A model generated the notes under the pieces. The model worked only from the letters and a program-made list of their open reading frames with translations, was not told the DNA's origin and made no database searches. A program made the position numbers and the translations under genes. From a virus (Duplodnaviria > Caudoviricetes): a DNA stretch of 64,000 nucleotides. Location: the IMG/VR virus record IMGVR_UViG_3300005686_000008; one strand, 5' to 3'. Positions 18,519-34,826 of this stretch are shown piece after piece (positions within the stretch are counted from its first letter, which is position 1; each line of letters opens with the position of its first letter).

Positions 18519-18594
18519 GGGATGCGTGTTGCCGAACGGTTTAGGCTCTCGACTCATAATCGAGGCAATGTGGGTTCAAGTCCCACCCATCCCA
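18519..18594 (+). tRNA. tRNA-Met/Ile2(CAT)
   Basis: CTCGA-CTCATAA-TCGAG, GTGGG-TTCAAGT-CCCAC. Confidence 0.8.
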
Positions 18595-21083: not shown

Positions 21084-21158
21084 ACGCCCAAAGCCTAAAT
21101 GGTGAGGCACTCGGCTTTCATCCGAGGTATCTAAGGTTCGAATCCTTAGTGGGATGTT
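21084..21158 (+). tRNA. tRNA-Glu(TTC), irregular acceptor stem
   Basis: CTCGG-CTTTCAT-CCGAG, CTAAGG-TTCGAAT-CCTTAG. Confidence 0.7.
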
Positions 21159-34150: not shown

Positions 34151-34354
34151 ATGGGTAAAGTAGGGGAAACCCTCTCTGGCTAAACTTTGACCATTGAGCC
34201 AAAGGATGTTCAGAACTCAAGAACCACTCTAAGGAGCGAGTCAAGTGAGCAAGAAGACCCCTATCAAAGGCAAAAAAGTTGGGAAGACGGTGACTTTCCA
34301 AGCCAAGCCGAAGGTTGACCCCTTGACTAAACTTCCTGCGCAAAAGAAGAAGAT

Positions 34355-34496
34355 GCCGACATAGTTTATCCTGGTTAGAACAGCAATGTTTGACTCAAGT
34401 AGGAGCTAGCGCAGTTCTGAAAAGTAGTCAAACCGAGCCTTGGCGCAAAGGCGGGAAAATTGAAAGAAGGAGGTTCGATCCCTCCTGTCGGCACCA
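34355..34496 (+). ncRNA. enlarged tRNA-like RNA with the anticodon loop replaced by a branched domain; encoded CCA
   Basis: GCCGACA/TGTCGGC-ACCA, D arm, GGAGG-TTCGATC-CCTCC; terminator 34505-34530. Confidence 0.75.
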
Positions 34497-34826
34497 CCGA
34501 TAACAACCCCCGAAATGGGGGTTTTCTTTTGCGATCATCCGTCTAATCGTTATGAGTGAAGAAGATCTACACAACCGCCAAGATCACCTCGTAGATCACC
34601 TCGCACATTTGGCACACAATGACCCACATTCTTAAGCTAACAAGCCACGCGATGTCCGGAGCTGCCACGCGATGTCCGGATGCCCAGGGCAAAAAGCCCA
34701 GGACTCGGAGGAGCCTCTCTTCAGTTCTGAGGCGGAGCCGCTCCGAACTGAGAGTTCCGTTAGGATTTTGGTATCTACAGTACGAGACTCCTCGCTGGCT
34801 AAACTTTCTTTGGAGCAGTTTTGGGT

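Follow-up and report, generated by a model that had tools for sequence, protein, structure and literature searches.

A tRNA-shaped RNA of an uncultured huge phage with a branched domain in place of its anticodon loop: a candidate non-decoding RNA

The genomes of large phages are rich in tRNA genes, of which an increasing number turn out to carry interruptions that lack an explanation. The species 1 RNA of phage T4 (rnaC), a stable RNA of 139 nt, has an obscure function and lacks a full cloverleaf. Group I introns measure ~200 nt or more and possess a catalytic core (P3-P9). YrlA (RF02553) consists of a tRNA-like module and, apart from it, a helix for protein docking (Chen et al., 2014, PMC4201824), and the sequence GNCGAAN0-1G was described for this RNA as the recognition motif of bacterial Ro60, or Rsr (PMC4201824). 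TROVE proteins with a tRNA-like partner have been mentioned in jumbo phages (PMC7824862), and “enigmatic” introns were described in the tRNAs of Lak megaphages, the inferred products being normal tRNAs of defined type (Devoto et al., 2019, PMC6784885). Precedents exist both for tRNA-like ncRNAs (YrlA, T4 species 1 RNA) and for huge-phage tRNAs with inserts that lack an explanation; the sequence family reported here (two lineages, its own CCA, a branched loop-E domain) appears not to have been described in the literature searched.

The window, that is, the whole stretch of DNA analyzed (64,000 nt, to which positions without a prefix refer), corresponds to the minus strand of G000:C1:222598-286597, G000 being a 370.6-kb IMG/VR contig that is ~73% complete. 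Several samples, ERZ761579, SRR2082604 and JGI 3300005675 among them, yielded contigs of this phage, the longest of 505 kb, in which the 3.3 kb surrounding the gene under study are identical. This uncultured phage of ~500 kb carries a gene for an RNA of 142 bases in which the tRNA body is correct and the CCA end is encoded. G000 encodes a DNA polymerase, helicases, an RtcB (G000:C1:300593-301720) and a TROVE/Ro60 protein (G000:C1:331305-333011), the last of these ~80 kb from the 142-nt gene. Stop-codon recoding was discarded, since the genome reads well in the standard code (code 11). An amber-reading tRNA(CUA) gene was located at G000:C1:363188-363261 (minus), and most of the genome has ORFs in agreement with the standard code. 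In total, 27 tRNA-type genes were found by ARAGORN in intron mode, all of them on the plus strand of the window. RF00005 also matched two sites (+) without an ARAGORN call, 21087-21154 (38.9 bits) and 18528-18587 (36.6 bits, model positions 7-64 only), which may be degenerate or partial tRNA genes. The features of the locus are the following:

34245-34364, plus strand: a 39-aa, very basic ORF with a GTG start, the stop codon of which overlaps tRNA positions 8-10
34325-34334, plus strand: the cassette start motif GACTAAACTT, a repeated motif, with its core CTAAACTT at 34327-34334
34335-34354, plus strand: a 20-nt leader with a GCGCA element (34338-34342)
34355-34496, plus strand: the 142-nt tRNA-shaped RNA, with acceptor stem (34355-61/34486-92), D arm (34364-81), T arm (34469-85) and discriminator A plus CCA (34493-96)
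34383-34463, plus strand: the remnant anticodon stem (G.A plus CAAU/AUUG), enclosing the 71-nt insert (34388-34458), from the Rfam alignment
34388-34433, plus strand: the long arm of the insert, in which an 8-bp helix GUUUGACU/AGUCAAAC leads via an internal loop to an inner hairpin of 6 bp, from the MFE and centroid folds
34437-34452, plus strand: the side hairpin GCCUU-GGCGCA-AAGGC, with 5 bp and the loop GGCGCA
34505-34533, plus strand: an intrinsic terminator, with a CCCCC/GGGGG stem (34505-34523) and a T run, from the terminator scan

The tRNA model RF00005 matched 34355-34496 (+) with 38.8 bits, above its curated cut-off of 29, aligning model positions 1-71 and inserting 67 nt in the anticodon loop. 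The acceptor stem comprises 7 bp (G1-C72, C2-G71 and C3-G70 among them, followed by A73), the D stem 4 bp, with G18-G19 in the loop, and the T stem 5 bp, with the loop UUCGAUC. These three arms had been proposed from the letters of the DNA alone, in what is called here the sequence-only reading, and all of them were recovered. By direct reading, the variable loop has 5 nt, and U8, A14, G18-G19, the U15-A48 Levitt pair, the U12-A23-A9 triple and the T loop are in place as tertiary elements. The acceptor, D and T arms are thus predicted to fold as a normal tRNA L-shape. The decoding part, by contrast, is missing: the stem has 4 bp plus G.A in place of 5 bp, 71 nt stand where the 7-nt anticodon loop would be, and the base at position 32 is paired within the insert helix (G32 with C79). 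ARAGORN did not call the 142-nt gene by default and accepted it only when introns were allowed, with a splice choice that gave Pro(UGG) here and Ser(UGA) for the copy in the homologous contig L264 described below; this choice is arbitrary. The fold energy is weak evidence for a structured RNA by itself and is not exceptional (z = -2.5 over the full RNA, and -1.5 when the insert is taken alone).

A 25-nt pattern with two free positions, covering the T arm and the 3′ acceptor strand, matched tRNA-Met(CAU) genes of three Saccharibacteria metagenome-assembled genomes:

L282:2853-2927, L283:2782-2858 and L284:59-133: tRNA-Met(CAU) genes with the same T arm and 3′ acceptor strand

These matches are a weak lead on the possible origin of the body and no evidence on the host.

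In place of the anticodon loop, the remnant stem (the G.A pair and four Watson-Crick pairs) opens into a three-way junction, from which two hairpin arms emerge. The long arm is a rod of ~20 bp including its internal loop, in which AGUA stands opposite GAA (34396-401 and 34419-25) and which looks like a motif of the loop-E/G-bulge type. Beyond it lies the inner hairpin GGAGCU/AGUUCU (34402-18), with the loop AGCGC, so that the inner and side hairpins show the same palindromic GCGC in their loops (AGCGC and GGCGCA). All of the helices claimed in the sequence-only reading (CAAU/AUUG, GUUUGACU/AGUCAAAC, GGAGCU/AGUUCU and GCCUU/AAGGC) were found again, and all are kept in the homologue. The insert has no second copy in the phage genome, and a mobile-element copy was rejected on account of this uniqueness. 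The sequence AUUGAAAG lies directly 3′ of the side hairpin; mimicry of a CRISPR repeat is an idea only.

A permissive Rfam scan of 351 nt (E up to 10) returned tRNA only and no intron, ribozyme, riboswitch, tmRNA or Y RNA. Hammerhead, HDV-like, twister, pistol and hatchet ribozymes were discarded because the strands of the junction do not fit them and Rfam gave no match. A tmRNA was rejected on the basis of the C3-G70 pair (not G3.U70), the full D arm, the length of only 142 nt and a blank ARAGORN tmRNA search. A group I intron was likewise rejected, the insert of 67-71 nt being far below the size of the catalytic core and without an Rfam intron match at E up to 10. In the sequence-only reading, the RNA had been judged too short for either of these two classes.

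Homologues were reached via the neighboring 113-aa protein, which led to four syntenic contigs (L264, L265, L266 and L267). The copy in L267 is identical to that of the phage, and six more contigs of the same phage are 100% identical as well and hence uninformative on variation. The check for covariation was answered by L264, in which the neighboring protein is 68% identical and a 142-nt homologue (L264:1029-1170) scored 161.6 bits with the model R1, built in this analysis. One sample that holds the variant is SRR17410015. Between the two RNAs, 13 of 142 bases differ and 39 of 39 pairs stay standard. Six of the differences fall in helices, three in the D loop and one each in the variable loop, the T loop, a hairpin loop and the junction. 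In the side hairpin, two double compensatory changes (C-G to A-U and U-A to C-G) accompany a change of G-C to G.U, with an invariant loop. The long arm is invariant save for A50G in the inner hairpin, which turns A-U into G.U, and an A to G change at the first base of the loop, and the four pairs of the anticodon stem are all kept. When 13 random substitutions were simulated, zero broken pairs were obtained in 4.5e-4 of the trials (0.045%), and at least two compensatory doubles in 6e-3 of them. In the body, the changes are at positions 16, 17, 20a, 47 and 60, which vary among tRNAs. The preservation of 39/39 pairs over 13 substitutions, together with body changes at tRNA-variable positions, indicates that body and insert have been under joint selection for structure.

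This case is built on two sequence variants only, and the flanks are also ~90% identical, so that the amount of conservation says little and only the pattern of the changes counts. For the 8-bp helix and the loop-E region, invariant in both sequences, covariation gives no support. The same data bear on the possibility that the gene is a dead tRNA gene, broken by a neutral or selfish insertion and with its decay still to come. In favor of this reading, the gene has no anticodon loop and belongs to a small family, and its flanks are as similar as the RNA itself. Nevertheless, no pair was broken after 13 substitutions, two double compensatory changes occurred, the insert is without another genomic copy, and the start motif, the CCA and the terminator were kept in both lineages. 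With this pattern, a dead gene is highly improbable.

The sister lineages L265 and L266 hold an unrelated RNA in the same slot, with the basic-peptide gene on one side and the downstream element on the other, as in the phage:

L265:2541-2660 and L266:1568-1680: a small RNA candidate, formed by a hairpin with a 12-nt loop and then a terminator

An unrelated hairpin RNA in this position is hard to square with a decoding tRNA. The contig G003 is also syntenic and ends about where the gene would lie. No homologue was found by blastn or megablast in phage records, by blastn or model R1 in 14 related phage contigs reached via the DNA polymerase, by model R1 at 14 more loci reached via neighbor proteins, by pattern scans of viral contigs or by scanning the genome collection with an insert pattern. 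A search by pattern for the gene without its interruption returned a single chance match, which fell in a coding region, a metagenome pattern scan gave 9 chance hits, all in coding sequences, and a palindromic-pattern scan, with a poorly chosen pattern, gave chance hits only.

The gene signals were also analyzed. The first base of the RNA (G1) lies 30 nt from the start of GACTAAACTT (34325) and 20 nt past the end of CTAAACTT. On the plus strand of the window, the core CTAAACTT occurs 68 times where 2.7 copies would be expected, spread over 3801-43363. An ATG begins 20 nt past the end of the motif in 25 of these 68 copies, and GCGCA occurs within 16 nt after it in 15 (1.1 expected). The core was also detected in L264, where the spacing to G1 is identical, and in L265 and L266; 16.8 kb of the syntenic relative G003 contained 0 copies. 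Judging from this distribution, CTAAACTT probably serves as a promoter element that is specific to the phage and similar to a -10 box, while a sigma-70 scan found nothing at the locus. Thus, of the earlier placement of the RNA at +30 of a promoter, the distance from a repeated motif stands, and the promoter role is the inferred part. The 20-nt leader would presumably be cut off by RNase P. The GCGC loops of the RNA were also considered as mimics of the GCGCA-bearing transcript leaders, an idea left unsupported by a similar rate of GCGCA leaders in lineages without the RNA.

Downstream, the RNA has its own terminator, as had been noted from the letters, and in L264 its stem is kept and its loop altered. 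A conserved element, GTTATGAGTGAAG (34540-34560), follows 3′ of the terminator in all four lineages, whichever RNA precedes it. The CCA is encoded in this gene only, in agreement with the sequence-only reading, and in 0 of the 26 other tRNA-type genes of the contig, which run into T-rich sequence. With its own motif, its own terminator and the sole encoded CCA, the 142-nt gene differs in its signals from those other 26 genes.

The 39-aa basic ORF upstream is, from the reading of the alignment, a real gene: by eye, its N-terminal codons shared with L264 show 7 synonymous and 0 non-synonymous changes, and the ORF was also found in L266. It had no match in Pfam. Owing to a 33-nt deletion relative to L264, the ORF runs on across the start motif and ends within the tRNA-shaped gene. 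Its product is possibly a candidate partner of the 142-nt RNA, by position alone. A mini-ORF at the 5′ end of the RNA (ATG-CCG-ACA-TAG, with the ATG at 34352-54) was discarded because ACG replaces the ATG in L264 and the mini-ORF is therefore not conserved.

The reading of the gene as a working tRNA requires that the insert be removed. In this alternative, the transcript would be a precursor tRNA with a protein-spliced intron, cut by an endonuclease and ligated by the phage RtcB to give a tRNA(UUG) or an ochre-reading tRNA(UUA). The insert follows U33 in the anticodon loop, which is precisely the site of tRNA introns, the RtcB ligase that this reading needs is encoded by the phage, ARAGORN in intron mode accepts the gene as an interrupted tRNA, and an amber-type tRNA(CUA) is carried by the same phage. 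Lak megaphage tRNAs with unexplained introns provide a published parallel (PMC6784885). Against it, neither a bulge-helix-bulge motif nor an EndA-type endonuclease was found. In the reading of the fold, the anticodon stem continues straight into the 8-bp helix without 3-nt bulges, for which reason a bulge-helix-bulge intron was rejected; and PF01974, the family of EndA-type endonucleases, was absent from G000 (73% complete) and from the complete relative G004 in a search that detected it in 4 archaea as a control.

The possible products of simple excision are also problematic. On a body with a short variable arm, they are 7-base loops with UUG (Gln), UUA (ochre) or Ser anticodons incompatible with that body, and the choice made by ARAGORN, Pro(UGG) here vs. 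Ser(UGA) in L264, is arbitrary. All of these loops begin with G32, and a G at this position is unusual for a real anticodon loop. The acceptor stem (G1-C72, A73) is unlike that of the true tRNA-Gln of a relative (U1-A72, G73), and the genome reads well in the standard code. Furthermore, the interior of the insert is conserved and covarying far from any splice site, and the whole gene is replaced by the hairpin RNA in L265 and L266. Taken together, a spliced precursor is considered unlikely.

Other tRNA-shaped RNAs of the clade were also compared. About a dozen other insert-bearing genes of this kind were found in the phage and its relatives by ARAGORN in intron mode and Rfam. Seven of them share a module formed by AAAACAYCUU..CC, a variable hairpin and then GUCGAA.GGA.GAAGGUUAAC. 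The Rsr motif GNCGAAN0-1G was exact in 5 of 13 other insert-bearing genes vs. 4 of 166 ordinary tRNAs. One of these RNAs adjoins the Ro60 gene of the phage:

G000:C1:333073-333195 (L237:31-153), minus strand: a tRNA-shaped RNA of 123 nt, an extra arm of which carries the Rsr motif GUCGAACG, 62 nt upstream of the TROVE/Ro60 gene

The same module is present in six more RNAs of G001 and G004, two of the G004 copies lying ~1 kb upstream of the TROVE gene of that phage. These RNAs look like non-permuted, tRNA-ended Y RNAs, a counterpart of YrlA, and the occurrence of the Rsr motif in tRNA-shaped genes beside TROVE suggests that the clade makes Y RNAs on a tRNA frame. Five other insert-bearing genes (L228, L229, L230, L231 and L234, from G001, G004 and G005; 107-168 nt) are without an exact Rsr motif, and the insert of L231 contains a second hairpin that resembles a T arm. 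The clade seems to harbor several classes of such interrupted genes side by side.

The 142-nt RNA could then be a second Y RNA of the phage Ro60, with the insert as a divergent docking arm, acting with RtcB in RNA repair or decay. The phage encodes both TROVE and RtcB, other tRNA-shaped RNAs of the clade carry GNCGAA(N)G and adjoin TROVE, and the helix UUUGACU/AGUCAAA resembles the metazoan Y RNA helix UUGACU/GGUCCGA (PMC4201824). Nevertheless, the helix has neither the bulged C nor the G.U pair found at the metazoan site, GNCGAAN0-1G is absent from the 142-nt RNA and from its L264 homologue, the TROVE gene is ~80 kb away rather than adjoining, and the RF02553 (YrlA) and RF00019 (Y_RNA) models gave no match at the locus. 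A second Y RNA is, in our estimation, distinctly unlikely. Because of its different insert, the lack of the Rsr motif, the distance from TROVE and the lack of a YrlA match, the 142-nt RNA is not filed here as a Y RNA, though it may work like one.

In the reading preferred here, to which about an even chance is given, the 142-nt RNA is stable, is built on a tRNA frame and does not decode. With a conserved branched domain of 71 bases in the place of an anticodon loop, it is most likely such a look-alike rather than a working tRNA. This reading draws on the true tRNA body, the joint constraint on body and insert, the lack of a known intron or ribozyme family, the distinct gene signals and the replacement in sister lineages, and the apparent use of tRNA frames for other non-decoding RNAs of the clade favors it as well. 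The proposal in the sequence-only reading of a tRNA mimic or a new ncRNA is accordingly retained over a decoding tRNA, in view of the missing anticodon loop, the lack of a fitting intron type, the compensatory changes and the gene's own signals. One of its variants, in which the RNA would be a decoy of anticodon nucleases, is unlikely, given that it lacks the loop at which they cut.

As a non-decoding RNA, the molecule would be transcribed from the phage CTAAACTT start motif, RNase P would remove the leader of ~20 nt, and the 3′ end would be trimmed back from the terminator to the encoded CCA, giving the 142-nt RNA. Since it could not read a codon, it would act through binding. The tRNA half might recruit or occupy proteins that recognize the tRNA elbow or the CCA end, and the insert, with its putative loop-E motif and two GCGC-loop hairpins, might offer a second docking surface or engage in loop-loop pairing, following an adaptor or decoy logic as in Y RNAs such as YrlA. 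A more specific version, which we regard as quite unlikely, is a new class of phage RNA in which a complete tRNA frame, with RNase P maturation, CCA end and L-shape, displays a two-site docking domain (loop-E plus twin GCGC loops) that tethers or traps a host or phage factor; that factor may be a tRNA-end-directed defense enzyme or a reader of the GCGCA element at the start of the phage cassette transcripts.

If the evenly weighted reading of a non-decoding RNA is correct, this case would show that some interrupted phage tRNA genes are selected non-decoding RNAs, neither broken nor intron-bearing. The phage that carries it also encodes Ro60, RtcB and tRNA-shaped RNAs that look like Y RNAs. Should a partner be found, the RNA would exemplify the reuse of the tRNA shape by phages for regulation, RNA repair or counter-defense, and it would be a natural counterpart of the laboratory “tRNA scaffold” for RNA expression.

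Compared with the systems described above, the group I introns of bacterial tRNA genes share the position of the interruption; they have ~200 nt or more and a catalytic core, in contrast to the 67-71 nt of this insert. T4 species 1 RNA, compared here by description and not by sequence, is similar in size, lies among phage tRNA genes and has a tRNA-like T arm and acceptor end, whereas it has no full cloverleaf and was not recognized by RF00005 in the search run here. The Lak megaphage genes are also interrupted tRNA genes of very large phages, with inserts of no known intron class, yet they were inferred to yield defined normal tRNAs, whereas the 142-nt RNA gives no convincing excision product and its insert appears structurally constrained throughout. 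The Rsr-motif RNAs of the clade (represented by the one at G000:C1:333073-333195) differ in the position of their module, between the D arm and the (pseudo-)anticodon arm, in the Rsr motif, in the lack of CCA and in an unrelated insert sequence; they have in common with the 142-nt RNA the same genome, a tRNA frame with tRNA ends, an extra structured module and a similar RF00005 match (39.6 bits). YrlA is circularly permuted, with both of its ends in the Ro60-binding stem, has a loop-capped acceptor stem without CCA, contains GNCGAAN0-1G and adjoins rsr, whereas the 142-nt RNA has tRNA-type ends with CCA, no such motif and a distant TROVE gene. Both nevertheless combine a tRNA-like module (D arm, T arm, acceptor and tertiary pairs) with a docking helix, which in the 142-nt RNA would be provided by the insert, both occur in phages that encode Ro60, and a possible adaptor logic completes the likeness.
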